From IMG/VR virus record IMGVR_UViG_3300033070_001565: 21,800 nt of DNA. One strand, written 5' to 3'. The notes beneath the pieces were generated by a model. The model ran no database searches. It was given only the letters and a program-made list of their open reading frames with translations, and was not told the DNA's origin. The stretch comes from a virus (Duplodnaviria; Heunggongvirae; Uroviricota; Caudoviricetes). A program made the position numbers and the translations under genes. Shown here piece by piece: positions 3,001 through 18,404 of the stretch; positions within the stretch are counted from its first letter, which is position 1; each line of letters begins with the position of its first letter.

Positions 3001-3999
3001 AAGAAAGATGGAGACAAGCTTACAAAGATAACGACTGCATCTGCAGGCCTAGGCGAGACACTGACAGACTTCGCTGTACAGCTTCCTGGAATTATCAAGT
3101 CTCTCGTTGGATTCGATGTTGGTGTCGACAAGGGTGCGCTTGAAAGAGCGAATGGAATCGGTCAGCTCGCAGGGTCTCTTTCGAAGGTTTTTGAAGCTGT
3201 TGGAAAGCTCTCTACTGCTGCTCCAGCGGATGGTGGAGCTGTTGCCGGAATTGCATCTGCTGCAAACACACTAAACACTCTCTTCTCTCAGTCTGAGGGT
3301 GCATTCGGAACGAATGTGGGGCCACTGAGGGCTGTTGTCAACGTGCTGACAAATGATTCTATCTCTTTTGACGCCGCAATACAATCAGGAGCAGCTGCAA
3401 ACGTTGGAATGGTCGACCTTACGACTGTGATATCCGGAATGAGCGCAAATCTTGTTGCGCTCTCAAGCGCAGCTCCACCGGCAGAGATACCATCCCAGCT
3501 CGCCGGAATAGCAACGACGATTGGAGCGTCAACAGAAGCAATCGAACAGATTGGTACTGCGATACAAGGTTGGGCGGCTGGATTTGCTGGAATGGCAGAT
3601 GCAGTAAACTCTAATGCAATCGCTCCCGCGATTGGTGCTATCGCAGATGTTGTCGCGAAGGTTAACGAACTGAATGACACTCTTGCAAACGCTGATGGTA
3701 ACAGAATCAGAATGACGACACGTCTTGAAAAATTTGCTGCGAACTCAGGCTTGGGATCGAAAGCAAAGTACGAGATCAAAAACAAGGACGTCAACATCTC
3801 GATCGATCTCAAGGTCGTGATGGAAGCTGGAAAGACAGAGCAAGTTCTCATTGAACGCAAGTCTTCTGTGATCAGACAGCATCTCGTTAATGCAACGTAC
3901 AGTGGTACGAATGGCGATGAGCAGGGCGGATCGACATTCCCGTCAAAAACTCTCACATCTCCAAATCTCCCTAACTTAGATTGCAAGTATGGACAATGA
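1..3999 (+). CDS. tail tape-measure-like giant structural protein, 5'-partial (frame open to nt 1)
   Basis: Frame 1 has no stop between nt 1 and the listed ATG at 55 (SAGFVLGFQKALGLTDEQ MKEM...), so the gene probably begins upstream of the window. It is over 1314 aa. The helical N-terminal part (GLSAKMVSRDMAALAKSMSSS...ATYMQKLGIES) resembles tape-measure core regions. A central block of about 280 aa (about nt 1370-2215) is Ala/Gly/Val/Ile/Leu-rich, nearly charge-free, and has several TM-length hydrophobic runs. Translationally coupled tail-type genes follow. The function is inferred from composition and position, not from verified homology. Confidence 0.7.
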   Translation, partial: SAGFVLGFQKALGLTDEQMKEMRVRSIALGTSLVQQQKEFAITSRTMSEKFGLSAKMVSRDMAALAKSMSSSNLSTTALATAATYMQKLGIESNKVVEAMKKFDTLEGGAEAASQLAQAFGASVDAFDLMNTDDLTERFAKLQKQVGQSGYSFESMNRQQREVLKSITGLDDETIALGFSQKGLAMSYEDVQKEAAKSGKQQMSTADALKRVADQIERMIQSGGNLGSGNYVTRFFQGFEAGIENSREFMKLLMNVKITLRDTYLAGAQAGRAFVASFPGVKDAFTSLAALFDPKRFKVMLNGIVSAFGEFSKSIGGKGENSVGMLYQNIRDSFLKWFDLSSPSGTKTVESIKKFLETFAKVALQGVKFLGEGIADGIVTIGAALTGKNLGKAGGATSAAMEWVSNTFGPILTELWKQVKIIVPVLIDVGIDLLKRFGEAIMEDPLKSYTYKIGGALALAIMGPGMLRGFAQATPSLIMSSAKGIISLAGSGLTKAAAAQAAGAVSGVGAVQAAAGQAATIASKTTGQQLASFGKGLATLGAVLVAVGALGFIMIKLAEQAKGLEFSDIAKVVGGVVAISVAMMPLALAMKIVSAVPLGDVVKGGAALTVMAAVIGAMTLGLMVLSKIEFDPKGIAVVADVAMTVTKLSLLASVLAAAAAGIGLIASNPAGTAAMATGLAVIGLMVTAIGASTVILIETAARMPAPESVKGKLEIMSIATGVIKDFAGSIGGIMSAAAPSLAEMLKTGPSFTEKLNSMSKFISGFGKSLIDITTQVMDIVVGFSPKMSTQVKESASLISSMLSAVGGLAMALRPPPELVSAGLLDQVFNGGVVGNLAAMSQYMTMLTENLKSVLINIVNRVKELAAGLPSDPGKLKGMEIVTQLIGSIGSIAQSIVPSGDAIKSLSSVVDGIAGKFGAVSGDTKKFDALTAIIEANGNIVKAVVPELVSGTLAGAIAAAGQMSPKQLEGTKAVISVASGLAGLFNSISSVLKSTPQVTLEKKDGDKLTKITTASAGLGETLTDFAVQLPGIIKSLVGFDVGVDKGALERANGIGQLAGSLSKVFEAVGKLSTAAPADGGAVAGIASAANTLNTLFSQSEGAFGTNVGPLRAVVNVLTNDSISFDAAIQSGAAANVGMVDLTTVISGMSANLVALSSAAPPAEIPSQLAGIATTIGASTEAIEQIGTAIQGWAAGFAGMADAVNSNAIAPAIGAIADVVAKVNELNDTLANADGNRIRMTTRLEKFAANSGLGSKAKYEIKNKDVNISIDLKVVMEAGKTEQVLIERKSSVIRQHLVNATYSGTNGDEQGGSTFPSKTLTSPNLPNLDCKYGQ

Positions 4000-4216
4000 A
4001 GTTAGAGTGTATCTTGAACAAATTTTTGGGTCCGGGGCTTGGAACATTCTTTCTGGTTCGATTCCACCAGATGAGGCAAAAAAAGTTGAGAAATCTACTG
4101 AGGACTTCGTTAGAAACTTTTGTATCCCATTCGAATCTGCAACAAAAAAGATAACAAATAATCCTGAATTGGTAGCTCAGCTGGCAAAAAAGTTGTCAGA
4201 AACAAAATTAGATTAA
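3989..4216 (+). CDS. small hypothetical protein (75 aa), translationally coupled between two structural genes
   Basis: The ATG overlaps the upstream gene end by 11 nt. Its TAA overlaps the next ATG (TAATG at 4214-4218). The sequence is charged and helical. I recognise no motif. Confidence 0.55.
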   Translation: MDNEVRVYLEQIFGSGAWNILSGSIPPDEAKKVEKSTEDFVRNFCIPFESATKKITNNPELVAQLAKKLSETKLD

Positions 4217-6654
4217 TGGCAACTCTGACAAATGATCCAGCGGTAAAACCTGCTCGCAGAGCCACGCTGGGAACTCTTCTAAAGGTCGGACCTACTGCTA
4301 TTGCACGTGGCGCTGCAGAGCTATCGTCATTTGATTCTGGATACAACGTAACTTCAGACGGTGCGAAACTTAAATCAGTACTTCCAGGATTCACAGAGCT
4401 GGCTCTAAAAAGAGTCGAGGCACGTGAACTTGAGGCTGGAAATATTCTTGAATCTCTCCTGTCGTCGCCGGATACTGGCGTTACAGAGATTTCGATCACA
4501 GATTCATGGGGAAATATCAACTCAGATTTGCAGCCGTATGATGGTCCTCTCGTTCCAGGAGGGATGCTTGTACTCGCAACCACTCTTACGCTGGCAGTTG
4601 GAACTTCTCTTACACTACTTTCAAACCTTGCAGGAATTGCAACTGGACGACAGGTTGAACGTACCGGGCCGAACGGACGAGGCTACAAGGGAAAAAGCTA
4701 TAAATTTGCAGATGGTAATGGAGGACTATTTTCAACAGATAGCATCAAATCGTACATCACGGACGCACTTGGTATTCGTCCGACAACTCGCGATTATTTC
4801 GAATGCGTGAAAGCAGGTTTTGCAACTGTCGTTGGAGCAGATATATCTGGAGGTGGTCTTCTACAACAGCTCACGCAATCTTTCAAAAAATTGGCAGAGT
4901 CTCCTGGATATTACGTTGTTCTGTTTCGTACTGTCACTCGTGATGCTGTTAGACTTGCTGACGTTGTAAAATCAATGGGGTCATCGCCTCTTCAAATCGT
5001 TGATGGCGTCGCAGACGTGATAAGATTTATTAGAGGATCGAAGATCATCGCAATGATGAATGTTTTTGCAATGATCGGCGATCTCGCGCTTGCTGCAAAA
5101 GATGCAAGGGAGCGTATTGGAAGTCTAGACAACGAAGAGTATCCAATCGATGCTCCAAAAGCAGAGTTTATAAGAGCATATGCTGGAAATTCTGGTAAGA
5201 AGCTCGCATGGGCCGGCGATCGTGCAAGATCACATCTTTTGCTTCCTGAGAGAATTCTTGCAGCGCATCAAACATTCGCAAGGGATCGATCATACATGGC
5301 TGCAACGTCTCTCAAACTACAGAGAATGTATAATCCTGCAATTGATCACGACTCTCTAACACTCACAGATCAAGATATCAGCAACCGTGGCAGAATCGCG
5401 GATGATTTGAGAATTGAAATTGAAAAGCAACTCGATTCTCAATACGTTCCATTTTACTTTCATGATGTTAGAACAAACGAAATAATCTCGTTTCATGCAT
5501 TTTTGACATCGCTCACTGACGATTATTCTCCATCGTGGGATGGTACAGATCCGTATGGAAGAATCGATCAAGTAAAAATTTACAAAAGCACTGGTAGAAA
5601 AATATCTGTCTCGTTCTATGTTGTCGCAACGAACGAAGAAGATATGGATGAGATGTATCTGAAGATTAACAAACTTGTCACGATGGTGTACCCTCAGTGG
5701 TCTCGCGGAGATATTTTTGCAACTTCGGATGGCAACAATCGATTCACTCAACCCTTTACTCAGACTCCAACTGCGTCTCCGCTTATCAGAATGAGACTGG
5801 GAGATTTGATTCAGTCGAACTATTCAAAATTCGCGCTAGCGAGATTGTTTGGTGCAGGAGAAATAGGCGCACTCAAAATCAATGGAAATGAACTCACTCA
5901 ATCTCAGGTTGACGAAGTTTCAAAAGACATTCAAAGAGATATCGTTTCTCAATCTGAGCGTTTGCAATCATCTGGTGGCACAAACAGAATCGTATTTCAA
6001 ATAAGACCATCGTACGGGGGTGTGCCTATCGAATCAATGAGATCTGGAGGGATAAAACTGTCAATTCCTCTGCCGATTCCATCTGCTGGAGGAGGAATTG
6101 ACACGATATCATTTCCCGCTCACGAGCTCGAGGCTTTGAAAGTTAAGGTCATATCTGTGAGCTCAGATGATATGGCTGAAATTCAGTTTCAGATCAGAGA
6201 TTCATATTCAGGAAAGATTCCAACTCTTGAAGACAAGATTAATACGATTGCATCGAAAACGTATGTTGTGCCGATTCACTATCTTCAAGAGATATCAGCA
6301 TCTGATGGCACGCTTAATCCATCATCGAGTCCATATGATACGTCTGTGATCGAATTTTTCTCTGAAGAGAAGAACACGATTGTGAGATCTTTTAAATCGT
6401 CTGGTGGTAGAGGAATCGCTTGTACAATAGACTCGCTGAACCTTGACTGGTGGGATGGTAATAAAATCGGATGGGAGACGTATTCAATTGGAAAATGCGC
6501 TCCAAAGATGTGTCTTGTAAAAATAGCTATAACGCCGATCCACGATATTGCACCGGGAATCGATCACCGCGGATTCAATAGAGCTCCAGTGTATCCTGTT
6601 GGTTACTTTGGTCACGATTCAATCAAATCAGGAGAATTAGATGGCATTCAGTAG
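4216..6654 (+). CDS. virion structural protein (tail/baseplate-associated), function unknown
   Basis: This 812-aa ORF is start-coupled to the upstream stop and overlaps the next gene by 14 nt. The internal segment YVPFYFHDVRTNEIISFHAFLTSLTDDYSPSWDG..GRIDQVKIYKSTGRKISVSFYVVATNEEDMDEMYLKINKLVTMVYP (about nt 5443-5700) loosely resembles the VPFY...GR...P pattern of Mu gp43 (DNA-circulation N-terminal) and tube-fold baseplate proteins. That resemblance is weak and unverified. Confidence 0.75.
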   Translation: MATLTNDPAVKPARRATLGTLLKVGPTAIARGAAELSSFDSGYNVTSDGAKLKSVLPGFTELALKRVEARELEAGNILESLLSSPDTGVTEISITDSWGNINSDLQPYDGPLVPGGMLVLATTLTLAVGTSLTLLSNLAGIATGRQVERTGPNGRGYKGKSYKFADGNGGLFSTDSIKSYITDALGIRPTTRDYFECVKAGFATVVGADISGGGLLQQLTQSFKKLAESPGYYVVLFRTVTRDAVRLADVVKSMGSSPLQIVDGVADVIRFIRGSKIIAMMNVFAMIGDLALAAKDARERIGSLDNEEYPIDAPKAEFIRAYAGNSGKKLAWAGDRARSHLLLPERILAAHQTFARDRSYMAATSLKLQRMYNPAIDHDSLTLTDQDISNRGRIADDLRIEIEKQLDSQYVPFYFHDVRTNEIISFHAFLTSLTDDYSPSWDGTDPYGRIDQVKIYKSTGRKISVSFYVVATNEEDMDEMYLKINKLVTMVYPQWSRGDIFATSDGNNRFTQPFTQTPTASPLIRMRLGDLIQSNYSKFALARLFGAGEIGALKINGNELTQSQVDEVSKDIQRDIVSQSERLQSSGGTNRIVFQIRPSYGGVPIESMRSGGIKLSIPLPIPSAGGGIDTISFPAHELEALKVKVISVSSDDMAEIQFQIRDSYSGKIPTLEDKINTIASKTYVVPIHYLQEISASDGTLNPSSSPYDTSVIEFFSEEKNTIVRSFKSSGGRGIACTIDSLNLDWWDGNKIGWETYSIGKCAPKMCLVKIAITPIHDIAPGIDHRGFNRAPVYPVGYFGHDSIKSGELDGIQ

Positions 6655-6940: not shown

Positions 6941-9799
6941 ATGAACAGCGTATCGCCAGTATCGAAACTCTCTGAGATCTACAGGTACATCTCTCCGAAA
7001 GATTTTGCAGGAAATCTCGCAAACTATGATGTAACTCCATCTGGTCTCGTACCGAACAAATCTGAAGAGGTTACCGGAGACATTGTACCATTCCTTCAGG
7101 GACTTGTCGTAGAAACAAGCAACAATGGTGCTGCTTCAAATGCTGATATTATCGATTCAGTCACGGCATATCTTGCCGGCGCCTCTACTGATGTTGTCAA
7201 GGAGTTTACAAAAAGATTCCTATGCATATCTGACACGCCGGTACCATTCAACTCTGACATTCAAAAACTAAAGAATTTCAAACTTTCAACTCTTATGAAC
7301 GGAAGTGGAGAGAGAGTTGAGTGCTCTACGTACATGATCGGAACTCAGAAAGTAAACATCAATCTGAGAAACACGAATGATATCATGACATTCTCTCGTG
7401 CAATACCAACGCACGAGATGTCGAGATGTGTTCCACATCTAAGGGTACGATTTCTTTATCCATCCGACTCAAGCGGTAGAAATCCAGATGGAAAGCTGCT
7501 CTCACCAGGAATATTGAAATTTCTGAGAGGCGGGGTCAGCATCTCAGACAGATCTGCCGATCTTGCAATGACAGATCCCACGCTAAGACTCAGCGCTGAC
7601 TCTGAACTCGGTCTGACGGGCGCAGCTGCAATACGAGGGTCTTCGAACGGGGGCGGAATGGACATGTTCCTCATGCCGCAGACACTACAAAATTTCGAAG
7701 AGACTGGGCTCGTCGATGGCAGGTTCAACTCTGTAATTGATCCCACACGCCCGTTCATGTCTCTTGAGGAGCTCTCTGTGAAGTGTGTGACTCAGCAAGC
7801 AGGTATGGGTCAGTACAAGACTGCCGAGCTGTCTCTCGTTCTCCACGATAGATCACGTCTACCAGATATTGCTCATCTCATCAAGCCAGATGCTTACGGG
7901 AAGACAATGCTCGATATTGAGTACGGTTGGTCTCATCCCGACGGGATCGGAAGCGATAACATCTACGGTGAGTTTATCAACAGGATCAAATCGAGAGAGA
8001 TATACATGATCAGGAATGCTGGATACGGCATTACGAACACTGGCGAGATGAAGATAACGCTTCATCTCGCAATGAAAGGCGCGACTGAGATGCTGAGATC
8101 TCGCATAAGCCAGTTCGATTACGAGAAAGATCTGAGAGTTCTAACAAATACAATTAGCGAACTCAGGAGAGCGCTCAATCTCAGTGTGCCTGGAGATCCG
8201 AGAGTAACTCAGATTCTCGATGCAGCTGAGCGTGGTGAGAGACCTGCAGATAGTGCAAATTTTCAAAAAGAACTCGATGGACTCCTCTCTGCTCTGAGAT
8301 CGGGATCTTACGCCAGAAAAGGTACTGATGGTGCGTCTGCATCGATCGCTGGGTCTGCTGCGCAAAAACTTGCTGACAAGCTGAAAGAGTTGTATCTCAA
8401 TCCGGATCCTGGAAATACAAAATCGAAACTTACGTTCAAAGAGAGCAGACAAAAAATTGCCGTAGAGACGATCAGAAAGAAATTCGTTCAGTGCGAGACA
8501 GGAATCGACCCATTTTTCCCAGATCCCGCAGATAAGGAAAAATACCCTGCTTTTGCATACAGCCTCGACACTTATAACAAGGGTACAAAAGACGATCCAA
8601 ACGGTCGAAATTCGATCGTATCTTTTGGAAAGTTGTTCTGCACTTTCGCTCTTGGTTCCATAAGAGACACACTGAAGGAGGAGATTGATGAAATACAAGT
8701 TTTCTTTTACCCATTCAGTACCGGCGCCGGCCGTGCTAGTGGGTCTCCAATCGGAATGTTTCCGATTGAAACTTCTGTTATTGACAGAATCATGCAAGAC
8801 AGGGCTCAGAAAACGATGAACGCAGACATGAGCGTTTACGATTTTTTGAATCTCGTGAATGACAAGATTTTTTCCGATCCAAGAACATTTGCATATGGAC
8901 TCTCAGACCTCTACATGCCGAGAACTGCAGATGAAAAAGAAGCACAGCTGAATACAAAAGTTGTCAAGGATTATCCTGCGCTCTCTCGTGCTCTTGATGA
9001 GAGATTGAATCAGTTTGGTGGTACATTCAAGGCTCCTGTTATCAAGATCATTCCTGAGACATTCCCGAAGCGACTGGGTCAGTATGCAGTTGATCCTAAC
9101 AGATTGATTCTACGACTTCATGTTTTCGATGTGCAAGCTGATGCTAACGATGCTGCGATGTCAGTCCTCAAGTCGCTGTCTCTTTCACCGACTGCATTTG
9201 TACCTGGAGCATCATCTCAAGATGATAGCGTAAAGCAGTTCATCGAAAATTTCAAGACCGCAACTGCAAATCTTGTAGGTTTGGGATTCAAAGATATCTC
9301 AATTAATCAGTCATCTGTAGGAAAACAGAATTTTCTTTCCGTCGACGGAAATCCTGAGCTCATCAAGGCTGCAATTACGAAGCTACTGCCTACGATATCG
9401 ATCGGAGGAAACGCATCGATCGTTACAAACATACAGCTCAGTCCGCAGCAAAATGCTCTCATATCATCTGCAAATATGAGAGCAAACGGAGGAGGGCCCG
9501 GGTTCAGGCCCAACGGGTCAGCCGCAGGTGGCTTGCCACTCAGCGTCATACCTGGAGAGATGAGTCTGTCAACGCTGGGATGTACATGGGCGACGATTGG
9601 TCAGAGAATATTTGTCGACTTGAAAACTGGAACGCAGCTCGATAATGCATACGTGTGTACAGGGATCGATCACAAAATTGGTCCTGGAAAATTCGAAACG
9701 AACTGGAAGTTCGCGTGGTACGATGCGTACCCAGCGTATACTTCATTCGTAAGATCAATGCAACAAGTAAACAGATTGCTTGAAAAAGCTTCCGCGTGA
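6941..9799 (+). CDS. large virion structural protein, possible baseplate hub/tail-tip protein (function unverified)
   Basis: This 952-aa uninterrupted ORF lies directly after the gpX-like gene. In P2/Mu-type tails a gpD/hub-type protein sits in that position. I could not confirm any enzymatic motif by eye. Confidence 0.7.
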   Translation: MNSVSPVSKLSEIYRYISPKDFAGNLANYDVTPSGLVPNKSEEVTGDIVPFLQGLVVETSNNGAASNADIIDSVTAYLAGASTDVVKEFTKRFLCISDTPVPFNSDIQKLKNFKLSTLMNGSGERVECSTYMIGTQKVNINLRNTNDIMTFSRAIPTHEMSRCVPHLRVRFLYPSDSSGRNPDGKLLSPGILKFLRGGVSISDRSADLAMTDPTLRLSADSELGLTGAAAIRGSSNGGGMDMFLMPQTLQNFEETGLVDGRFNSVIDPTRPFMSLEELSVKCVTQQAGMGQYKTAELSLVLHDRSRLPDIAHLIKPDAYGKTMLDIEYGWSHPDGIGSDNIYGEFINRIKSREIYMIRNAGYGITNTGEMKITLHLAMKGATEMLRSRISQFDYEKDLRVLTNTISELRRALNLSVPGDPRVTQILDAAERGERPADSANFQKELDGLLSALRSGSYARKGTDGASASIAGSAAQKLADKLKELYLNPDPGNTKSKLTFKESRQKIAVETIRKKFVQCETGIDPFFPDPADKEKYPAFAYSLDTYNKGTKDDPNGRNSIVSFGKLFCTFALGSIRDTLKEEIDEIQVFFYPFSTGAGRASGSPIGMFPIETSVIDRIMQDRAQKTMNADMSVYDFLNLVNDKIFSDPRTFAYGLSDLYMPRTADEKEAQLNTKVVKDYPALSRALDERLNQFGGTFKAPVIKIIPETFPKRLGQYAVDPNRLILRLHVFDVQADANDAAMSVLKSLSLSPTAFVPGASSQDDSVKQFIENFKTATANLVGLGFKDISINQSSVGKQNFLSVDGNPELIKAAITKLLPTISIGGNASIVTNIQLSPQQNALISSANMRANGGGPGFRPNGSAAGGLPLSVIPGEMSLSTLGCTWATIGQRIFVDLKTGTQLDNAYVCTGIDHKIGPGKFETNWKFAWYDAYPAYTSFVRSMQQVNRLLEKASA

Positions 9800-9844: not shown

Positions 9845-10948
9845 GTGAATCAATTCTTCATTGACTCAGATCTAACAAGCAAGATATCAAATATCAAAAT
9901 TCAAATTGATACTGAGCATGGGAAATTTAAGAGAGTACAAAATCCATCTGGTTATGCATACACACGTACGGATGCTCATGTACGTGCAAGCTTGCAAGCC
10001 CTGGCATGGTCTCATGGGGTACATGTCGATGTGACGTCACCTGTACCTGAGACTGTACTTGCCGGTCTTGGAGTATTTGATGTTTGTCCTGCACACGTGA
10101 TCAAACCATGGCTAGATTCAGTTCTGAAGCAAGTGAGAGAATATTCTGAGCTATCAAATGAGTATTGCGAAAATGTGTGGAAGCGACACATGCATTTTGC
10201 AAGCAAATTTGCTCAGCTACCCGGTCGACCATCTCCGGTTTACGATTTTATCTCATCAAAGACCGGTCGACCATCTGTGATATCCGGGCACAATTACACG
10301 AATGAGACGTGGTCATCTCGAGTACATGCAATTTCGAACAATGGATGCCTGTATTACGTCGATATGAGCGAGTTCGAGGCAAGAGTACTCGGCGCAAGAG
10401 TTGGAATCGATTTTGGGGGATCTGATGCGTATATGACTCTAGCTGAGATGGTTGGTATACCTGGACAGAGAGATGATGCCAAGCTGACAGTCCTGGCATC
10501 AGTTTTCGGAGCGGGAAAGAATTTCACTGAGTCGAAGAACCTGTCACTCAGTACTCTCGGTAGCGTAAGGAGCATCTTCAAAATCGATGAGCTAGCTCAC
10601 TCGTCCGGACCAATCGTGACTCCACACGGCAGAAAAATTGCAAAACCAGAAGCACGGCTCGTACCATCTTGGTACACTCAAGCAACGGCAGTAGACATTG
10701 CGTGGCAGAGATTTGAAAACACAGCAGAATTGTTTCCATCAAAATTCGATACGATCGCAATCGTGCATGATGCATGCATTATCGATGCTCCTGTCGGAGC
10801 AGAAAAGAGACTCACGAAGTATTTTGCTCAGACTCTCATCGATCCTGTTACTGGCGTTAGTTTCCCAGTCAAAATTAAAAAGTTGAGTGATGTAAAGAAT
10901 GTCAAGCGAGAAGTACAATCTGAACAAGATGGTACAATCTCTCAGTGA
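9845..10948 (+). CDS. minimal family-A (Pol I-like) DNA polymerase domain protein, no exonuclease domain
   Basis: GTG start; the next in-frame Met is at residue 115. TGRPSVISGHNYTN corresponds to TGRLSSxxPNLQNIP. Motif A is YYVDMSEFEARVLGA versus DYSQIELRxxAH (D173 at 10361-10363, E178 conserved). Motif B is RDDAKLTVLASVFGAG versus RRxAKxxNFGxxYG (K213 at 10481). GRKI..(N)..TQATAVDIAWQRF corresponds to GRRR...QGTAADIxKxAM. Motif C is IAIVHDACIID versus QVHDE (H308/D309 at 10766-10771). Confidence 0.75.
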   Translation: MNQFFIDSDLTSKISNIKIQIDTEHGKFKRVQNPSGYAYTRTDAHVRASLQALAWSHGVHVDVTSPVPETVLAGLGVFDVCPAHVIKPWLDSVLKQVREYSELSNEYCENVWKRHMHFASKFAQLPGRPSPVYDFISSKTGRPSVISGHNYTNETWSSRVHAISNNGCLYYVDMSEFEARVLGARVGIDFGGSDAYMTLAEMVGIPGQRDDAKLTVLASVFGAGKNFTESKNLSLSTLGSVRSIFKIDELAHSSGPIVTPHGRKIAKPEARLVPSWYTQATAVDIAWQRFENTAELFPSKFDTIAIVHDACIIDAPVGAEKRLTKYFAQTLIDPVTGVSFPVKIKKLSDVKNVKREVQSEQDGTISQ

Positions 10949-11585
10949 GAGTCAAATACTCAGCAATTATGCTGCATACAGCAAGCTGCTGATCGCAACT
11001 GCTCTTCCGAATCAAAAAGCTGGTGTCGAGTCTCTTCTCTCTCATCTTGAAAATCGATTGGCACTGTGTCCTGGATCGTCGAAGATTGCATATCATAATG
11101 CATTTCCCGGGGGTCTTGTCGATCACTCTCTACGAGTTGCGAAGCTTGCAAAGCAATTTGTTACTGGTATGCAGATGACTGGAATTCCTATCGCTCGTCT
11201 CATCTTTGCGTGTCTCTTGCACGATCTTGGGAAGGTCGGCGATGAACGAGATGAGTACTACATTCCTCAGACAAATGACTGGCTCCGCGGAAAGGGAGAA
11301 CCCTATCAGATTAATCCTGCAATTCGGTACATGGCAACACAGCAAAGAAGCGTGTACCTTTGTCAGTATTACGGTATTCAGCTCTCTCATGAGCAGTATC
11401 TTGCGATTCTCCTGAACGATGGTCAGTATTCGAAGGATAATGCTGCGTACGCAATGAAAGAGCCTGAACTTGCAACCGTGCTCCACACTGTGGATCTTCT
11501 TGCAACGAAGATTGAAAAGGGAGAATTTATGAAGTCACAAGATTCTGAATTTGACTCGACAGAGTTAGATATTATATGCAAGTGA
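10899..11585 (+). CDS. HD-domain metal-dependent phosphohydrolase
   Basis: YHNAFPGGLVDHSLRVAKLA ... LIFACLLHDLGKVGD ... LHTVDLLA gives the H...HD...D signature of the HD superfamily and looks like a YhaM-type HD domain. The listed ATG overlaps the polymerase gene by 50 nt. An alternative ATG at 10929 would overlap by 20 nt. Confidence 0.8.
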   Translation: MSSEKYNLNKMVQSLSESQILSNYAAYSKLLIATALPNQKAGVESLLSHLENRLALCPGSSKIAYHNAFPGGLVDHSLRVAKLAKQFVTGMQMTGIPIARLIFACLLHDLGKVGDERDEYYIPQTNDWLRGKGEPYQINPAIRYMATQQRSVYLCQYYGIQLSHEQYLAILLNDGQYSKDNAAYAMKEPELATVLHTVDLLATKIEKGEFMKSQDSEFDSTELDIICK

Positions 11586-12587: not shown

Positions 12588-13799
12588 ATGGCAGCCAAGA
12601 AAAAAGAATTCATCCCGGTTCTTAACGAAGCGGTCGACGGTATTGATGCCGCGTCGACCGCTGAGTTCGTTAAGCAGATTAACCGTGAGATGGGAGACCG
12701 TGTAGCATTCAATCTCGCGGAGGGAGAGGCACCAACAATCATCAAGCGTTGGATTCCGACCGGTTCCACTCTCATTGATTACATGATCGCGAATCGTAAA
12801 GGCGGAGGTCTACCAGAGGGAAGAATCATCGAACTCTCGGGCATGCCCTCAACTGGCAAGTCTCACATTGCGTACGAGATTGCAAAGAACGTGCAGAAAA
12901 TGGGCGGTCTCGTCGTGTACATCGACACTGAGAATGCGACTCAGATCGATAAACTCCATGAGATGGGTCTCGATGTCAGGAACCGTTTTATCTACTGCGA
13001 TACGCACTGCACGGAGGAGGTCTTCGAACTCATTGAGAAGACGATCACGAAAGCAAAGCAAGTCATTGGGAAGAAGAACGTTCCATTTCTTGTCATTTGG
13101 GACTCTGTCGCTTCGACATCACCAAAAGCAGAACTAGAGGGAAATTACGATAAGGACACAATCGGTCTCCAGGCGAGGGTTATCAGTAAATGCATGAGGA
13201 AAATTACGGGAGTACTCGGTGAGAATAATGTAACCCTTCTGTGTCTCAACCAACTCAGGACGAAGATTGGTGAGATGTTCGGAGATCCCATGTCATCTCC
13301 TGGAGGAAACGCTATTCCATTCCACTCAAGTGTGAGATTGAGACTTTCTTCTGGTCAGCCAGTCAAGAACAAGAAGGGCGAAATCATCGGGATCAAGGTG
13401 ATTGTCACTCTCAAGAAGAACAAGGTTGCATATCCTCACCGCAAGTGCGAATTCGAGATTCATTTCGGACGCGGAATCTATGAATCAGAAGCACTATTCG
13501 ATGTGCTCAGAGAGTGGTGCATTGAGCACACAGGAGCAAAGATCGGAGATGCGTACGTTTCGGTCAGCGGTGATGGTGCATGGAAAGAGCTCATTGTCGC
13601 AACAAAAGATGGAGAAGTACTTGTTGAAAAGAAGTTCTATAAACACGAGTTCAGCGAGGTAATGTCTGATCCGAAATACCTCCCCTACGTATCAGTACTC
13701 ATTGATGCTGCGCTTGTAATAAAGCCAGACCTAGGTACACAAACAAATAATGGAAGCCCATCAGAAGGTGAATCAGACACCACAGCAGCCCCAAACTAA
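12588..13799 (+). CDS. recA: RecA-family recombinase
   Basis: LPEGRIIELSGMPSTGKSHIAYEIA contains the Walker A motif. VVYIDTENA and FLVIWDSVASTSPKAELEG contain the Walker B motif. GLQARVISKCMRKITGVLGENNVTLLCLNQLRTKIGEMFGDPMSSPGGNAIPFHSSVRLRL is nearly collinear with the bacterial RecA core (GLQARLMSQALRKLTG...[32 protein letters not shown]). Confidence 0.9.
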   Translation: MAAKKKEFIPVLNEAVDGIDAASTAEFVKQINREMGDRVAFNLAEGEAPTIIKRWIPTGSTLIDYMIANRKGGGLPEGRIIELSGMPSTGKSHIAYEIAKNVQKMGGLVVYIDTENATQIDKLHEMGLDVRNRFIYCDTHCTEEVFELIEKTITKAKQVIGKKNVPFLVIWDSVASTSPKAELEGNYDKDTIGLQARVISKCMRKITGVLGENNVTLLCLNQLRTKIGEMFGDPMSSPGGNAIPFHSSVRLRLSSGQPVKNKKGEIIGIKVIVTLKKNKVAYPHRKCEFEIHFGRGIYESEALFDVLREWCIEHTGAKIGDAYVSVSGDGAWKELIVATKDGEVLVEKKFYKHEFSEVMSDPKYLPYVSVLIDAALVIKPDLGTQTNNGSPSEGESDTTAAPN

Positions 13800-14314: not shown

Positions 14315-15268
14315 ATGTCAGAACCCTCTCCTAGGCCGATTCTTCTCGTTGACGGTCTCAATCTGTTCATAAGATGCTGGTGCGCGTATCCTGCTGTCTC
14401 AACTCATGGTGGGCAGCTGGGAGGCGTTGTCGGGTTTCTGAAAACTCTCAACAGGCTCGTGTCTGATAATTCTCCACAGAGAGTCATCATCGCATGGGAG
14501 GCTGGCGGATCTCTGCGTCGCAGAGGAATAGACCCCAATTACAAGAACCAGCGCCGACCTGAGAAGCTCAACAGATTTTATGGAGATGATATCCCTGAGA
14601 CACACGAGAATTGGCAGCACCAGCTCACAAGTCTTGTGAAGATATCAGAGTGTCTCCCGGTCACTCAGGTTTATGTCGAGGACTGTGAGGGAGATGACGT
14701 AATATCGTACTGTGCAACATCGATCAGAGGAGTCAACAAGATCATTGTCTCATCAGACAAAGATTTTTATCAGCTCCTTGACTCAGAAACAAAACAGTAC
14801 TCTCCTCACAAAAAGTGTTTCATAACTCAGGATGACGTTCTGAGAGACTTTTCGATTCATCCTTGCAACTTTGCAATCGCGAAGGCAATCTGCGGAGATC
14901 CTGGAGATAACGTTTCAGGAGTCCCACGAGTGGGATTCAAGAGTCTCGCAAAACATTTTGACATTCTTAAATCGAGCACGCCACTCATTCTTCCCGACGT
15001 TGAAACTTGGGCTGCTGCTCATAGAGATGAGTCTGCAATCATCAAGAGAGTGTGGGAAAACTGGGATATTGTCCAGAAGAATTGGAAACTTGTCTTTCTT
15101 GGAATTGGCGCTCTATCTCCACAGCAGATAAAGAGGATTGATCAATGTTTGGGAGTGGTACCACAACCAAGTCTGGTCAAGTACTTCGGACTGCTAAAAG
15201 AGATCGGAACATCTGACATTGGAGTACATTCCACGTTCCAAACGCTGAAGCAAATAGGTGATAATTGA
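14315..15268 (+). CDS. 5'-3' exonuclease / flap endonuclease (Pol I N-terminal / T5 D15 / T4 RNase H family)
   Basis: ILLVDGLNLFIR shows the PIN-like acidic site. IIVSSDKDFYQLL is also present. AKAICGDPGDNVSGVPRVGFKSLAKHF fits the H3TH pattern GDxSDNIPGVxGIGxKTA. Confidence 0.85.
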   Translation: MSEPSPRPILLVDGLNLFIRCWCAYPAVSTHGGQLGGVVGFLKTLNRLVSDNSPQRVIIAWEAGGSLRRRGIDPNYKNQRRPEKLNRFYGDDIPETHENWQHQLTSLVKISECLPVTQVYVEDCEGDDVISYCATSIRGVNKIIVSSDKDFYQLLDSETKQYSPHKKCFITQDDVLRDFSIHPCNFAIAKAICGDPGDNVSGVPRVGFKSLAKHFDILKSSTPLILPDVETWAAAHRDESAIIKRVWENWDIVQKNWKLVFLGIGALSPQQIKRIDQCLGVVPQPSLVKYFGLLKEIGTSDIGVHSTFQTLKQIGDN

Positions 15269-16029
15269 CTGAGAATTTTGGTAAGTACGGTATCGATTTC
15301 CAAGAAAAGATTATGCAAGCTCTGCTCGTTGATCGAGCATGGGCTCAGCAGATGATGGAGGTGTTCAAACCAGATTTCTTTGAGAGAAAGCATCTCGTTT
15401 ACCTTTCGAACAGATACTTCGAGTACTGGAAGCAATACAAAGTCTTTCCGACATTTGAACTTCTCGTTGTCATCATCAAAGATGAGCTGAAGTCTGGTAT
15501 TGACGCTGAATTGAGAATTCAGATTGTCGATTATCTCAAGCGCATTAAAGATAATCCCAACTCTGAAGATCTTTCCTACGTGAAGGATAAGTCTCTCGAT
15601 TTCTGTAAGCGTCAGGGATTGAAGACTGCAATGCTCGAGGCAATCGAGCTGATCGAAGATCAGCGTTACGAGCCCGTTGTCGATATCATCAAGAAGGCTG
15701 TCTCTGCGGGTACATGCGAGTCTCTGGGACACGATTTCTTCGAAGACAGAGATGCTCGCTACGTTGAAGATTACCGTGAGTGCGTTCCAACCGGCATTCC
15801 GGAACTCGATTCAAAGGGTGTTTTCAATGGTGGATTGGGCAAGGGTGAACTCGGAATTGTCATTGGTGGCACCGGCGCAGGAAAATGCACTCAGAAGAAC
15901 GCCACTGTAAACATCAGGTATACAGCGATTGATATCGATGGTACGATTTACAATCCATGGGATATCGTATCAACGAGAAGAGGAAAGATTCTTGCAAAAG
16001 ATGTCACGTCAAGAGACGAACTCATCTGA
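15265..16029 (+). CDS. T4 gp41/DnaB-type replicative helicase, N-terminal fragment ending inside Walker A, fused to an intein N-segment
   Basis: The TTG start overlaps the FEN stop (aaTTGAct), with an alternative ATG at 15313. GHDFFEDRDARYVEDY resembles T4 gp41 GHDWMDDYEARW. The helicase sequence ends GELGIVIGGTGAGK (AAA at 15883-15885). It is followed by Cys (TGC 15886-15888), then TQKNATVNIRYTAIDIDGTIYNPWDIV... and TGA at 16027-16029. Confidence 0.85.
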   Translation: MTENFGKYGIDFQEKIMQALLVDRAWAQQMMEVFKPDFFERKHLVYLSNRYFEYWKQYKVFPTFELLVVIIKDELKSGIDAELRIQIVDYLKRIKDNPNSEDLSYVKDKSLDFCKRQGLKTAMLEAIELIEDQRYEPVVDIIKKAVSAGTCESLGHDFFEDRDARYVEDYRECVPTGIPELDSKGVFNGGLGKGELGIVIGGTGAGKCTQKNATVNIRYTAIDIDGTIYNPWDIVSTRRGKILAKDVTSRDELI

Positions 16030-17546
16030 ACAGATTCCGGAGTGTCAGATCTGCGGAATGACTTCACGCAATCTGATTACTCACATTACACGTACTCACA
16101 AGATCTCATGCAGTGAGTACGCTTCACAATATCCAGGTTCAAAAATTTTTCTTGTTAGGAAAAAAGAAAAGAAGCTTTCGCAGAGGCAGCAGCATGTAAT
16201 TGAACTCAAATCGCTTGGTACGAGTCCGCTTACGTGCAGACTGTGTGGATTCGAGTCTTACATGTCACTCACCTCGCACATTACGAAAATTCATAAATTT
16301 TCGATGGCTGAGTACAGAAAAAAGTTTCCAGAAGATGTTATTCAACGAGGCTGTCCGACAACAAATGAAAAGAACAGAATCGCACAAAAAGAACGTTTGA
16401 AAAATCCTGATTTGCGTGAAAAATGGGACAAGCAAAGATTTCTTCCTCCTACCATGAAGGAATTTTGGATAAAAAAGGGTCTGTCTGAGACAGACGCGGA
16501 AATAAAAGCGCGTGAAATGCGCGATAGAATATCAAAAATTCCTGTTAGCGCTTCAACACGATCAAAACTGTCAGAAAAATCGCGTGGAATTAAAAATCCA
16601 ATGTCGATTGAATCCATTGCGGCTCGTCATCATGTTACGCCCGATGAAGCGAGCGCATTCACTCCGTGTTATCGTCGCAGTGGAAGTTTGCATCCCATGT
16701 ACGGAAAACATCATACTGAAGAAAGTCTACAGAAAATTGCAAACGCAGATCATCTAAAACGTCCAAAATGGTCGTCGAAGGGTGAAAAAGAACTAGCGAA
16801 TTTTTGCAATTCTCTAGGCGTTACGTATGAAAACGTAAAAATTGGAAGATATAACGTAGATGTTCTATTCGCTGAAAAGAAATTGATCGTTGAGTACTTT
16901 GGAGATCTATGGCATATGTCTCCTAGGCGGTTCGAAAAAGATCAGTACCATTACTTGACACGAAAAACTGCATGTCAAGTATGGGAAAGAGATCACAAAA
17001 AGATGGAGAATTTTGTATCAATAGGATACAAAATTCTCGTAATCTGGGAATCAGATTGGAAAAATGATAGAGTTTCTTGCGAAGAAAAGATTACCGATGC
17101 CTACAATCAAGCACGTTGAAATTACTCGTACGGTTAGTCTCGAAGATCTTTTTGCTGAATTGGGATGTTCTGAGAAAGATGCACCTAACACTGAAGACGG
17201 TGACACGCTCATCAAATGCGATTATCCGATTGAAGTTGAATCTTCGAACGGCTATCAATTCATCAGTGCCGTGAGATGGACAAAACATGAACCGGTAATC
17301 AAACTAATCGTGAAATCCGAGATCGATGAAAAAAGTGTATCTCTCGGTTGCTCTCCTGAGCATCGTGTCATGACAAAACGCGGGTGGAAATATGTAAAAA
17401 ATCTTTTCGAAGATGATTACGTGTACACAAAGGACGAATGGATGAGAGTTGAGTCTTTGAAGGGACTCGATGAACTGGAACGTCTCTGTGATATGCAAGT
17501 TGATATTACTCACTGCTACTACACAAACGGGATCCTATCTCACAAC
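15886..17546 (+). mobile_element. composite selfish element: P-loop mini-intein interrupted by a free-standing homing endonuclease gene
   Basis: The element begins at intein Cys1 (15886) and ends at the terminal ...GILSHN (AAC 17544-17546), followed by the +1 Ser (TCG 17547). Block B is SLGCSPEHRVMT (His at 17361-17363). Blocks F/G are DMQVDITHCYYTNGILSHN. Removing 15910-17117 (1208 nt) leaves 453 nt, a 151-codon mini-intein. Confidence 0.8.
15929..17119 (+). CDS. free-standing homing endonuclease: two C2H2-like zinc fingers, NUMOD3-like modules and a C-terminal Vsr-like (PD-(D/E)xK) nuclease
   Basis: Frame 2 is open from the TAA at 15908-15910 to the TGA at 17117-17119. Candidate starts are TTG 15929, ATG 15938 and ATG 16001. 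The fingers are CQICGMTSRNLITHITRTH (about 16043-16099) and CRLCGFESYMSLTSHITKIH (about 16235-16294). NUMOD3-like modules include SGSLHPMYGKHHTEESLQKI and SEKSRGIKNPM. The nuclease region GEKELANFCNSLGVTYENVKIGRYNVDVLFAEKKLIVEYFGDLWH...VWERDHKK...GYKILVIWESDW is collinear with Vsr/DUF559-type endonucleases. Confidence 0.8.
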   Translation: MISMVRFTIHGISYQREEERFLQKMSRQETNSSEQIPECQICGMTSRNLITHITRTHKISCSEYASQYPGSKIFLVRKKEKKLSQRQQHVIELKSLGTSPLTCRLCGFESYMSLTSHITKIHKFSMAEYRKKFPEDVIQRGCPTTNEKNRIAQKERLKNPDLREKWDKQRFLPPTMKEFWIKKGLSETDAEIKAREMRDRISKIPVSASTRSKLSEKSRGIKNPMSIESIAARHHVTPDEASAFTPCYRRSGSLHPMYGKHHTEESLQKIANADHLKRPKWSSKGEKELANFCNSLGVTYENVKIGRYNVDVLFAEKKLIVEYFGDLWHMSPRRFEKDQYHYLTRKTACQVWERDHKKMENFVSIGYKILVIWESDWKNDRVSCEEKITDAYNQAR

Positions 17547-18404
17547 TCGCATCTTCTTGTTAACCTCGGTGCAAATGCAATCAAGGCAGGTCTCAATGTT
17601 CTTCACTACACATTCGAGCTCTCAGAGCACCAAGTATCTCGCAGATACGATGCAAACATCTGCGAGATCAATGCTGACGATCTTTCTGAGAAGAAAGCAG
17701 ATGTCTTTGCTCACTACGATGCTGGCACGAAGTACGGAAAGCTGAGAGTAAAGTACAAGCCAACCGGCACAGCAACGATTCTCACAATCAGAGCTCACGT
17801 AGAGGCGCTAGCTCTCCGTGGATTTGTACCTGATCTCATCATTATCGACTATGCAGATATCATGCGTTCGACGAGACAGTTCGACAGTCTCAGGCATGAG
17901 CTCAAGCAAGTCTATGAGGATCTCAGAGGGTACTCTGGTGAACTTGGCGTGCCCATCTGGACTGCTTCCCAATCGAATAAAGAGGGCGTCAACTCTGACT
18001 TCATCGATGAAACGAACATGTCTGAGGGTTACGCAAAGGCGTTTGTCGCTGACATTATCGTTACAATCTCAAGGAAGCCAGTTGAACGTCACTCCGGTCT
18101 GGGAAGGCTATACGTTGCCAAATCACGCGCAGGTAGAGATGGTCAGCTTTATCCCATCAAAATTGATACTGCGCAGTCTAGATTCGTAATCCTCGGCGAG
18201 GTACAGTCCCCATCTCAGGTGGCGACAGAGGATGACAAGAGTTTGAAAGCTTCCATTCGAGAAAAATGGAACAAGGTAAAGAAGGACGCTGAGTTGGCTC
18301 TCGGGCCAAATCTCAATGAAACCGTGGCTCAGCAACCGGCAGTGCAACAGCAATTAGGAAAAAGAAATGGAAAATACGATCTACACATACGCACAAGTGT
18401 ATGA
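17064..18404 (+). CDS. intein C-portion fused to the gp41/DnaB-type helicase C-terminal fragment (RecA-like ATPase core)
   Basis: ATG at 17064 or 17097, both inside the endonuclease gene's 3' end. Intein sequence runs to SHN, and the extein starts at 17547 with SHLLVNLGANAIKAGLNVLHYTFELS. Further matches to T4 gp41 are RRYDANICEINADDL (RIDANMLDVSLDDI), LRVKYKPTGTA (LIVKQYPTGGA), LIIIDYADIM (IIIVDYLGI, Walker B), IWTASQSNK (LWTAAQ), MSEGYAKAFVADIIVTI and VAKSRAGRDG (KSRYGD). Confidence 0.85.
   Translation: MIEFLAKKRLPMPTIKHVEITRTVSLEDLFAELGCSEKDAPNTEDGDTLIKCDYPIEVESSNGYQFISAVRWTKHEPVIKLIVKSEIDEKSVSLGCSPEHRVMTKRGWKYVKNLFEDDYVYTKDEWMRVESLKGLDELERLCDMQVDITHCYYTNGILSHNSHLLVNLGANAIKAGLNVLHYTFELSEHQVSRRYDANICEINADDLSEKKADVFAHYDAGTKYGKLRVKYKPTGTATILTIRAHVEALALRGFVPDLIIIDYADIMRSTRQFDSLRHELKQVYEDLRGYSGELGVPIWTASQSNKEGVNSDFIDETNMSEGYAKAFVADIIVTISRKPVERHSGLGRLYVAKSRAGRDGQLYPIKIDTAQSRFVILGEVQSPSQVATEDDKSLKASIREKWNKVKKDAELALGPNLNETVAQQPAVQQQLGKRNGKYDLHIRTSV

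Follow-up and report, generated by a model that had tools for sequence, protein, structure and literature searches.

A phage DnaB-like helicase gene parted by a putative split intein with a 47-residue IntN: a probable variant of the fractured-gene arrangement

In 2009, Dassa et al. described "fractured genes", in which a free-standing endonuclease gene lies between the halves of a split intein (PMC2677866). In these loci, the 3′ end of the endonuclease gene overlaps the open reading frame (ORF) of the C-terminal intein fragment (IntC) by 6 to 69 bp, and it was proposed that the invading element gives the upstream piece its stop codon and the downstream piece its initial methionine (PMC2677866). 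Natural inteins with an atypical split have N-terminal fragments (IntN) of 15 to 37 aa and are broken either after β2 (the S1 position; 16 aa in VidaL and 15 aa in PolB16) or after α1 (the S2 position; 25 aa in AceL-TerL and 37 aa in GOS-TerL) (PMC13014065, PMC10189870, PMC11766414), and the IntN of GOS-TerL can be trimmed from 37 to 27 aa (PMC11766414). Here, we analyze positions 15265 to 18404 of a 21,800-nt stretch of viral DNA (Caudoviricetes; IMG/VR record IMGVR_UViG_3300033070_001565; the window), in which a replicative helicase gene is interrupted by what appears to be such an intein. We consider it highly likely that the locus belongs to this known class of fractured genes and atypically split inteins, and it is no new kind of system. 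Its variant feature, which is probably new, is an IntN of 47 residues composed of β1-β2 and a conserved insert of 35 residues, with the split placed after the insert.

A DnaB-like helicase encoded as two open reading frames

Three ORFs on the + strand (ORF1, the endonuclease frame and ORF3) fill positions 15265 to 18404. ORF1 (15265 to 16029) contains the N-terminal two-thirds of a DnaB-like helicase, with its residues 8 to 207 matching positions 159 to 366 of phrog_19 (the profile of DnaB-like replicative helicases), and it ends with GGTGAGK/CTQKNATV (Cys codon at 15886 to 15888), 39 further codons and a TGA. ORF3 (17064 to 18404) begins with an intein part of about 150 to 161 residues, followed by a serine and the remaining ATPase domain of the helicase; this C-extein matches Pfam DnaB_C (8.2e-11) and phrog_19 positions 369 to 601, thereby abutting the N-extein match that ends at 366. 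The intein site is the helicase P-loop (GAGK/C…SHN/S), and the extein parts are colinear with an uninterrupted helicase, as intein-less alleles (L014 to L022 and others) are continuous across GK/SH and join exactly at GK/S. The helicase is thus encoded as two ORFs, one for the N-extein and the 47-residue IntN and the other for the 150-residue IntC and the C-extein. An earlier sequence-only reading of this stretch had its ORF limits, coordinates and frame arithmetic right, as can be read directly from the sequence, and its proposal of an intein-interrupted helicase with halves parted by an endonuclease ORF is confirmed by the layout and the profile matches. The features are as follows:

15265 to 15885, + strand: N-extein, N-terminal part of a DnaB-like replicative helicase up to the Walker A/P-loop GGTGAGK (PHROG phrog_19)
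15886 to 16029, + strand: IntN, 47 codons (CTQKNATVNIRYTAIDIDGTIYNPWDIVSTRRGKILAKDVTSRDELI) and TGA
15886 to 15921, + strand: IntN residues 1 to 12, β1-β2 core/block A with Cys1
15922 to 16026, + strand: IntN residues 13 to 47, conserved insert
16001 to 17119, + strand: free-standing homing-endonuclease gene (frame open from 15911)
about 16016 to 16330, + strand: two C2H2/Ros-MucR-like zinc-finger repeats (ROS_MUCR, 27.1 bits)
about 16679 to 16741, + strand: NUMOD3 motif (Pfam NUMOD3, 33.9 bits, above the cut-off)
about 16742 to 17116, + strand: C-terminal Vsr-like (EDxHD) nuclease domain (profile against 1vsr and 3r3p)
17097 to 17546, + strand: IntC, 150 codons, from M12 of ORF3 (MPTIKHV…) to the terminal Asn (AAC 17544 to 17546)
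17547 to 18404, + strand: C-extein, the rest of the helicase ATPase domain from Ser+1 (SHLLVNLGANAIK…; DnaB_C, phrog_19)

IntC contains β3/α1 (TVSLEDLFAELG), block B (CSPEH), block F (LCDMQVDITH) and block G (CYYTNGILSHN), and its profile finds gp41-1 (6qaz, 1e-9 to 4e-12), NrdJ-1 and VidaL (6vgv, 3e-8 to 4e-9) in the PDB. All splicing residues are present, namely, Cys1, the histidine of block B (xxxH, here SPEH), the penultimate His, the terminal Asn and Ser+1. As we picture it, the two products would associate after translation, with a ribbon formed by IntN residues 7 to 17 and IntC residues 4 to 14 carrying a small sheet made by the insert. The reconstituted HINT domain would then splice in trans through the Cys1 thioester, transesterification at Ser+1 and cyclization of the Asn, and would yield an intact helicase whose P-loop reads GAGK-S. 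The endonuclease would spread the cassette by cutting endonuclease-free alleles, and in relatives it would have decayed to a spacer of 10 to 70 nt or an ATGA overlap, leaving the intein split.

The IntN tail, the IntC head and the position of the split

Scanning IMG/VR with ORF3 and then with an IntC alignment yielded 157 loci, which were compared by tblastn and ORF extraction. IntN is exactly 47 residues long in 22 distinct loci with the layout of the window, endonuclease-less ones included, and these share the motif C-x4-T-x-I-x-V-[KR]-Y-x2-I-x-I-[ND]-G-x2-Y-K-P-W-[DE]-x-I-x-T-[KR]-R-G-x-I-[FY]-A-R-D-[IV]-x3-D-E-L-[ILV]-stop, with C1, W25, T30, R32, G33 and D44 invariant among 13 aligned sequences. 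In sister clades, about 27 other distinct loci have an IntN of 53 to 74 residues. Over 10 moderately diverged pairs, which share phylogenetic history and are not independent, the ratio of nonsynonymous to synonymous differences (pN/pS) of IntN codons 9 to 47 amounts to 0.30 when read in the ORF1 frame, against 1.07 in the endonuclease (+1) frame that overlaps it, which points to purifying selection on the tail in the former frame and not in the latter. The tail is unchanged in the endonuclease-less alleles L007, L016, L086, L112 and L153, and residues 13 to 47 are homologous to the insert of the contiguous inteins L114, L146 and L148. The comparison of homologous loci that the sequence-only reading had proposed thus finds the ORF1 tail conserved at the protein level and not variable in frame, and it argues that the 47-residue tail is a genuine IntN, one of the two options that reading had left standing; its suggestion that the intein breaks only about 8 codons in does not survive, given that the 39 codons after V8 are conserved in the 22 loci and selected in the ORF1 frame.

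The contiguous relatives also show where the break lies. In L114, L146 and L148, which occupy the same P-loop site of the helicase, β1-β2 (CVGxNTxIxIxY) is followed by an insert of about 45 to 60 residues with the signature …P[WF][DE]x[FI]…G…[YF]GW[QE][VIL] and then by '..[IV]x[IV]xxLFxxLG', while in L126, which resides in another host protein, the insert is reduced to a stub (…DINPWNES…), and L149 lacks it. When 53 sequences are aligned together with MAFFT, the split sites of all clades (IntN of 47 to 74 aa) fall in one homologous column directly after the insert. About 50 loci share this homologous split point, and the contiguous L146 is colinear with the split L104 through the break, where nothing overlaps. 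The break falls between β2 and β3, and IntC, which starts about 10 residues before β3/α1, keeps this element together with blocks B, F and G. In topology, the break takes the S1 position (after β2), as in VidaL and PolB16, and we regard an S1 topology extended by an insert as likely. The start of IntC is conserved as M-[LP]-[STQ]-I in all members of the clade (ATG 17097 here, with MPTI corresponding to MLSI/MPTI elsewhere), and the database gene calls P0001 and P0002 begin at the same Met; the alternative ATG upstream, at 17064, is not conserved.

The sequence-only reading had further remarked that the ORF1 tail is mirrored by the ORF3 head and had taken the two for alternative N-segments, one of them being redundant in one of its two readings. 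The mirror is no better than chance: a Smith-Waterman comparison of the two segments of the window scores 19, with a mean of 19.1 for shuffles, 986 out of 2000 of which score at least 19, and hhalign gives a probability of 0.3% and one aligned column for a 22-sequence tail profile against a head profile. Moreover, the '..K[IV].DLF..LG' element is found in every member of the family, insert-free inteins included, and it is the single β3/α1 element that follows β2 in ordinary inteins. When residues 13 to 47 are deleted in silico, the alignment of the profile with the PolB16 intein begins at profile position 2 and continues to the end, and that with the TFIIB mini-intein begins at position 16. 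Because the two segments show no similarity and stand in tandem in contiguous inteins (the insert and then β3/α1 in L114, L146 and L148), because β3/α1 is universal, and because the insert-deleted profile aligns in this manner, the ORF3 head is not a second copy of the tail. The resemblance likely stems from generic HINT patterning of β-strands and turns, with the ORF3 head (…VSLEDLFAEL) being the canonical continuation of block A, which is how the sequence-only reading had also described it. MAFFT, for its part, mis-pairs the IntN segment 'G.IFARD[IV]…D' with the segment that follows block B, 'GWKYVKNLFEDD', its pseudo-symmetric counterpart.

A structural model of the fused IntN and IntC, computed with AlphaFold2 from an alignment of 27 rows (A8), has a predicted local distance difference test (pLDDT) of 89 and a predicted TM score of 0.84, against a pLDDT of 37 for the single-sequence prediction of the same fusion. 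The sequence-only reading had asked for a structure prediction to decide which of the competing segments completes the fold; in the fused chain, tail and head are accommodated together in one HINT model, the 39 tail residues after V8 having a pLDDT of 84 to 97, and the lowest confidence within the intein is seen in the split-site loop (about 73) and the α1-β4 loop (74). IntN residues 7 to 17 form a long strand, followed by short strands at 20 to 22, 27 to 30 and 33 to 36, and IntC residues 4 to 14 form a long strand that runs into helix α1 (LEDLFAE), with a standard HINT core thereafter. From the secondary-structure string of the model, rather than from its coordinates, we infer that the strands of IntN 7 to 17 and IntC 4 to 14 may pair as an out-and-back ribbon carrying the insert, in which case an intermolecular β-ribbon would bridge the split. 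In a Foldseek search of the PDB with the model, VidaL (6vgv) comes first (E 1.8e-7, TM 0.77 normalized to VidaL, 203 alignment columns), and gp41-1, NrdJ-1, DnaB inteins and PolB16 (TM 0.71 normalized to the target) are next.

The intervening endonuclease gene, its decay and its relatives

Between the intein halves, frame 2 is open from 15911 to 17119, preceded by a TAA at 15908 to 15910 and ended by a TGA at 17117 to 17119. The endonuclease probably starts at ATG 16001, 28 nt before the ORF1 stop, a choice we favor because relatives have an ATG 13 to 37 nt before their IntN stop; it then shares 29 nt with the IntN ORF and, with the IntC ORF, 23 nt (counted from ATG 17097) or 56 nt (from ATG 17064). 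The sequence-only reading had described this insert as one ORF running from wall to wall. Its stops are where that reading put them, but the boundaries are not conserved, as the upstream stop of the endonuclease frame falls anywhere from -26 to +112 nt from the Cys1 codon across 12 related loci and the likely starts of the endonuclease and IntC are 16001 and 17097. Likewise, removing 15910 to 17117 does fuse …ATV to EITRTV… in frame, with 17118 being the start of an ORF3 codon, and the similar strings noted at the two ends (CACTGTAA at 15903 to 15910 and CACGTTGAA at 17112 to 17120) do exist, but they share only a few bases and are not junctions in the relatives.

The endonuclease ORF matches homing-endonuclease families of PHROG, and more than 30 related loci have a homologue in this place. 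Built from 15 homologous endonucleases, a profile of their C-terminal 125 residues matches E. coli Vsr (1vsr, 2.3e-8) and the nuclease domain of I-Bth0305I (3r3p, 2.8e-6), with D40, E51 and H58 invariant and D84 nearly so, at the positions of the catalytic Asp, Glu, His and Asp. The Vsr and 3r3p matches are seen only by profile, and the single-sequence PDB search gives only a marginal match to a Ros zinc finger. On this profile evidence, the endonuclease belongs to the Vsr-like/EDxHD family. The 3′ part of its ORF holds a perfect 14-bp inverted repeat (GAGAATTTTGTATC…GATACAAAATTCTC) at 17006 to 17038, about 60 nt upstream of the IntC start, with an RNAfold z of -6.1 against shuffles. We rejected this hairpin as a regulatory element for IntC in the family, as it is absent at the equivalent position in 12 relatives, so it is lineage-specific or due to chance.

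The same split is found in about 50 distinct loci spanning 25 to 50% sequence divergence, and these appear to retain successive stages of endonuclease loss. Full alleles measure about 750 to 1110 nt from the IntN stop to the IntC Met, and internally deleted remnants of 504, 268, 241, 152 and 134 nt are present in L081, L083, L085, L098 and L145. In other alleles, the spacer is only the last 38 to 69 nt of the endonuclease ORF, as seen when L093 is compared with L092, L132 with L130 and L007 with L084, and L086 and L112 are at this same stage. The spacer is reduced to 10 to 11 nt in L110 and L157, and in L155 the IntN stop and the IntC start overlap as ATGA. The endonuclease-less alleles still show a stop, a short spacer and a Met. 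Both intein halves are intact at every stage, which suggests a functional split helicase whose split persists after the endonuclease is gone, as step III of the Dassa model has it. Taken together, the patchy presence of the endonuclease and this series of decaying alleles would be consistent with a homing cycle. One NCBI-sourced protein (P0037, 324 aa) consists of an IntN-bearing N-terminal helicase fragment that reads on into a remnant of the Vsr-like nuclease C-terminus (…GYDVLIIWELDWNKN…) and represents a decaying endonuclease fused in frame to IntN.

Outside IMG/VR, the locus had no blastn match among GenBank phages, IntC had only two weak partial tblastn matches among phages, and a scan of 185,579 cellular genomes found only distant partial intein matches and no close relative. 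Because there is no close GenBank phage or cellular match, the clade is known only from uncultured viral contigs. IntC fragments of the same family (…H.[FY]YSNGILSHN) open several other proteins, namely, terminase large subunits, ABC-type ATPases, RecA and other helicase fragments (P0012 to P0016, P0024, P0027, P0033 and P0043), and these IntC begin after α1, which is an S2-type start like that of AceL-TerL and GOS-TerL. These similarities suggest that one intein lineage may have spread among the P-loops of different ATPases and that the family is linked to the TerL inteins. In the viral contigs L070 and L071 (800 to 1891), a RecA/UvsX-like gene begins with a long IntC of the family (…ENTHCYYSNNLLSHN/T) and is preceded at 625 to 936 by a remnant of a Vsr-like endonuclease; here, a recombinase holds an atypically split intein. 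In the window, the RecA gene (12588 to 13799) is intact. Some related helicases (L114, 2718 to 4598, and P0008) have another intein piece towards the C-terminal end of their ATPase domain; it is a canonical-type IntN (…QR/CLTLDTNV…, …NR/CLKFDSKV…) and runs to the end of the ORF, so helicases of this type are encoded in three pieces or carry two inteins.

The surrounding genes form a phage replication module composed of RecA, dUTPase, a 5′-3′ exonuclease, the split helicase and ribonucleotide reductase. The N-extein probably starts at TTG 15265, which overlaps the TGA stop of the upstream 5′-3′ exonuclease gene (ATTGA; 15262 to 15268) and suggests translational coupling. Upstream of the module, four large ORFs (55 to 3999, 4216 to 6654, 6941 to 9799 and 9845 to 10948; 1314, 812, 952 and 367 aa) have no Pfam match at E<=1e-4, and the ORF at 10899 to 11585 has an HD domain. 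Scans for promoter and terminator consensus sequences gave matches at chance level only.

Competing explanations and comparison with described systems

Several observations weigh against our identification. The Thr position of block B is Ser or Ala (S-P-E-H), the Pfam model Intein_splicing reaches 24 bits for the single IntC sequence, and the Vsr-type Pfam models MTES_1575 and DUF559 are likewise reached by the single endonuclease sequence, all below their curated cut-offs. No contiguous intein of the 47-aa clade of the window was found, the contiguous relatives belonging to sister clades only; in protein searches, a concatenate of the IntN and IntC of the window had 0 matches, a 13-sequence profile found 7 proteins and a 25-sequence profile 42, none of them contiguous. 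The structural model is that of an artificial fusion, built from an unpaired and shallow alignment in which only 5 rows cover the insert and in which MAFFT misaligns the last 15 IntN residues in five rows. Finally, trans-splicing activity is predicted here from conservation, from purifying selection and from the split being kept where the endonuclease has been lost.

If IntN consisted of only about 8 residues (CTQKNATV), the 39 codons after V8 would be fortuitous read-through from the endonuclease cassette. In fact, the conceptual fusion CTQKNATV/EITRTVSLEDLF does look like a mini-intein block A, in the Dassa model the upstream stop codon comes from the invading element (PMC2677866), and the IntN of GOS-TerL tolerates trimming from 37 to 27 aa (PMC11766414). 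We nevertheless reject this explanation and consider it extremely improbable, because the tail is fixed in length and strongly conserved in the 22 loci (with five of its residues invariant in the 13-sequence alignment), is kept in alleles without the endonuclease and evolves at a pN/pS of 0.30 in the ORF1 frame; the homologous insert of contiguous inteins and the confident prediction of the tail are also against it. Alternatively, a genuine 47-aa IntN could pair with an IntC that holds a redundant copy of the same strands, either displaced or acting as a built-in cap. The IntC head M-L-S-I-E-x-x-D-V-E does look superficially like C-L-S-x-x-T-x-V, MAFFT repeatedly placed the IntC heads of fragments on the IntN start, and it also aligned 'G.IFARD[IV]...D' of IntN with the segment following block B. 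In contiguous relatives, however, both segments follow each other (L146 against the split L104), neither hhalign nor the pairwise score finds similarity between them, the AlphaFold HINT model fits both confidently and aligns to VidaL over its full length, and '..[IV]K[IV].DLF..LG' is universal, insert-free inteins included, so we judge a redundant copy to be improbable.

The remaining two explanations dispense with protein splicing altogether. The helicase could be a dead pseudogene that was broken by the insertion of the endonuclease and makes no functional protein, given that the gene is in pieces, that splicing is here a prediction from sequence and that phages can sometimes use the DnaB of the host. 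Such a pseudogene would hardly be expected to keep all catalytic positions and full-length exteins that are contiguous on the helicase profile, to share its split with about 50 loci, in some of which the halves are translationally coupled after the loss of the endonuclease (the ATGA of L155, and L110 and L157), or to be under purifying selection, and we find this explanation very improbable. As for removal of the insert of about 1.2 kb at the RNA level, by a group I or II intron with its endonuclease, Vsr-like endonucleases do also reside in group I introns, as is the case for I-Bth0305I in recA (PMC3239194, PMC2677866). Nevertheless, an Rfam scan of both strands of 15400 to 17600 gave no family match even at E<=1 and thus no catalytic intron RNA, the flanks encode full intein motifs, the stop that follows IntN and the Met of IntC being conserved, and the endonuclease-less alleles retain stop, short spacer and Met, so that we give an intron practically no credence.

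It is possible, although we hold this idea only tentatively, that an accessory β-sheet "zipper", made up of the conserved 35-residue extension of IntN and the first IntC strand, spans the break as a built-in module of association and compensates for the tiny β1-β2 interface of an S1-type split, which would define an undescribed natural class with an IntN of 47 to 74 aa and a split inside or after an insertion domain. The family is widespread among uncultured large phages and occurs repeatedly in helicases, some of which are cut into three pieces; if the idea holds, it would provide new, naturally evolved and probably mutually orthogonal atypical split inteins, as well as a natural example of an insertion loop turned into a landing pad for an endonuclease. 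Protein ligation, labelling and dual-vector gene therapy rely on split inteins as core tools, and natural atypical splits are rare and sought after. The relatives also preserve the life cycle of the endonuclease, from the full gene through remnants and short spacers to a stop/start overlap, and illustrate a "gene-breaking" origin of split inteins. For annotation, the arrangement explains why a phage helicase may be seen as two ORFs with an unrelated gene between them.

Regarding known systems, the closest in layout are the fractured genes of Dassa et al. (gp41-1 to gp41-9, NrdJ-1, IMPDH-1 and TerL), in which enzymes of DNA metabolism of phage origin are also broken by a split intein, and a free-standing Vsr-like or GIY-YIG endonuclease lies between the halves (Vsr-like here) and has a 3′ overlap with IntC (23 or 56 nt here). 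Endonuclease-less alleles exist in both sets, gp41-7 in theirs and L007, L093 and others in ours. Unlike the present intein, with 47 and 150 aa and a P-loop site, gp41-1 to gp41-9 are canonically split (IntN of 88 to 105 aa, IntC of 33 to 54 aa) at other helicase positions, and only the terminase case of that set is split atypically (PMC2677866). By its insertion directly behind GxGK, the intein occupies the equivalent of P-loop site "b" of DnaB inteins; the bacterial DnaB-b inteins are contiguous, many with in-frame endonuclease domains, whereas this one is phage-borne and split (PMC4760082). The endonuclease resembles I-Bth0305I and the EDxHD nucleases (3R3P; PMC3239194) in the profile match of its nuclease domain, the invariant Asp/Glu/His/Asp and the presence of a NUMOD motif. 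It differs from them in having two Ros/MucR-like C2H2 repeats and NUMOD3 in place of NUMOD2/HTH (helix-turn-helix) and, I-Bth0305I being intron-encoded, in being free-standing between intein halves, with cleavage only predicted.

Among the atypically split inteins, VidaL (6VGV) is the nearest in structure, as its IntC also comprises β3/α1 and blocks B, F and G and its IntN supplies β1-β2 with Cys1. The two differ in the 47-aa IntN seen here, with its 35-residue insert after β2, in sequence (about 18% identity) and in the endonuclease gene that still lies between the halves of our intein. The host protein of VidaL is presumably a "T4-like helicase" (the "VidaL T4Lh" loci). PolB16 OarG shares the S1-type split (IntN of 15 aa, IntC of 168 aa; PMC10189870), but it is a cysteine-independent intein with Ser1/Ser+1 that resides in a PolB polymerase and has no IntN extension, while the present one has Cys1/Ser+1. 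AceL-TerL and GOS-TerL are, like our intein, natural atypical splits in a phage P-loop ATPase, the IntN of GOS-TerL, which stems from a fractured locus, has about 10 extra residues that are dispensable, and the present family includes terminase IntC relatives with S2-type starts (P0013, P0014 and P0027). Unlike our intein, both TerL inteins are split after α1, lack the '..K[IV].DLF..LG' element in IntC and have no insert domain. The unusual topology claimed by the sequence-only reading therefore stands insofar as the split is atypical and IntC holds blocks B, F and G, but S1 and S2 splits and the fractured-gene layout had already been published (PMC13014065, PMC10189870, PMC2677866). In the literature that we searched, there is no description of the S1-plus-insert variant, although related helicase inteins, such as those of the "VidaL T4Lh" loci, may already have been listed. 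Because the conserved insert sits between β2 and the break, IntN exceeds the very short lengths of the S1 class, with 47 aa here and 53 to 74 aa in the sister clades against the published 15 to 37 aa. The locus and its approximately 50 relatives would thus represent, besides the two published split positions, a third natural solution, in which an S1-equivalent split follows an insert.

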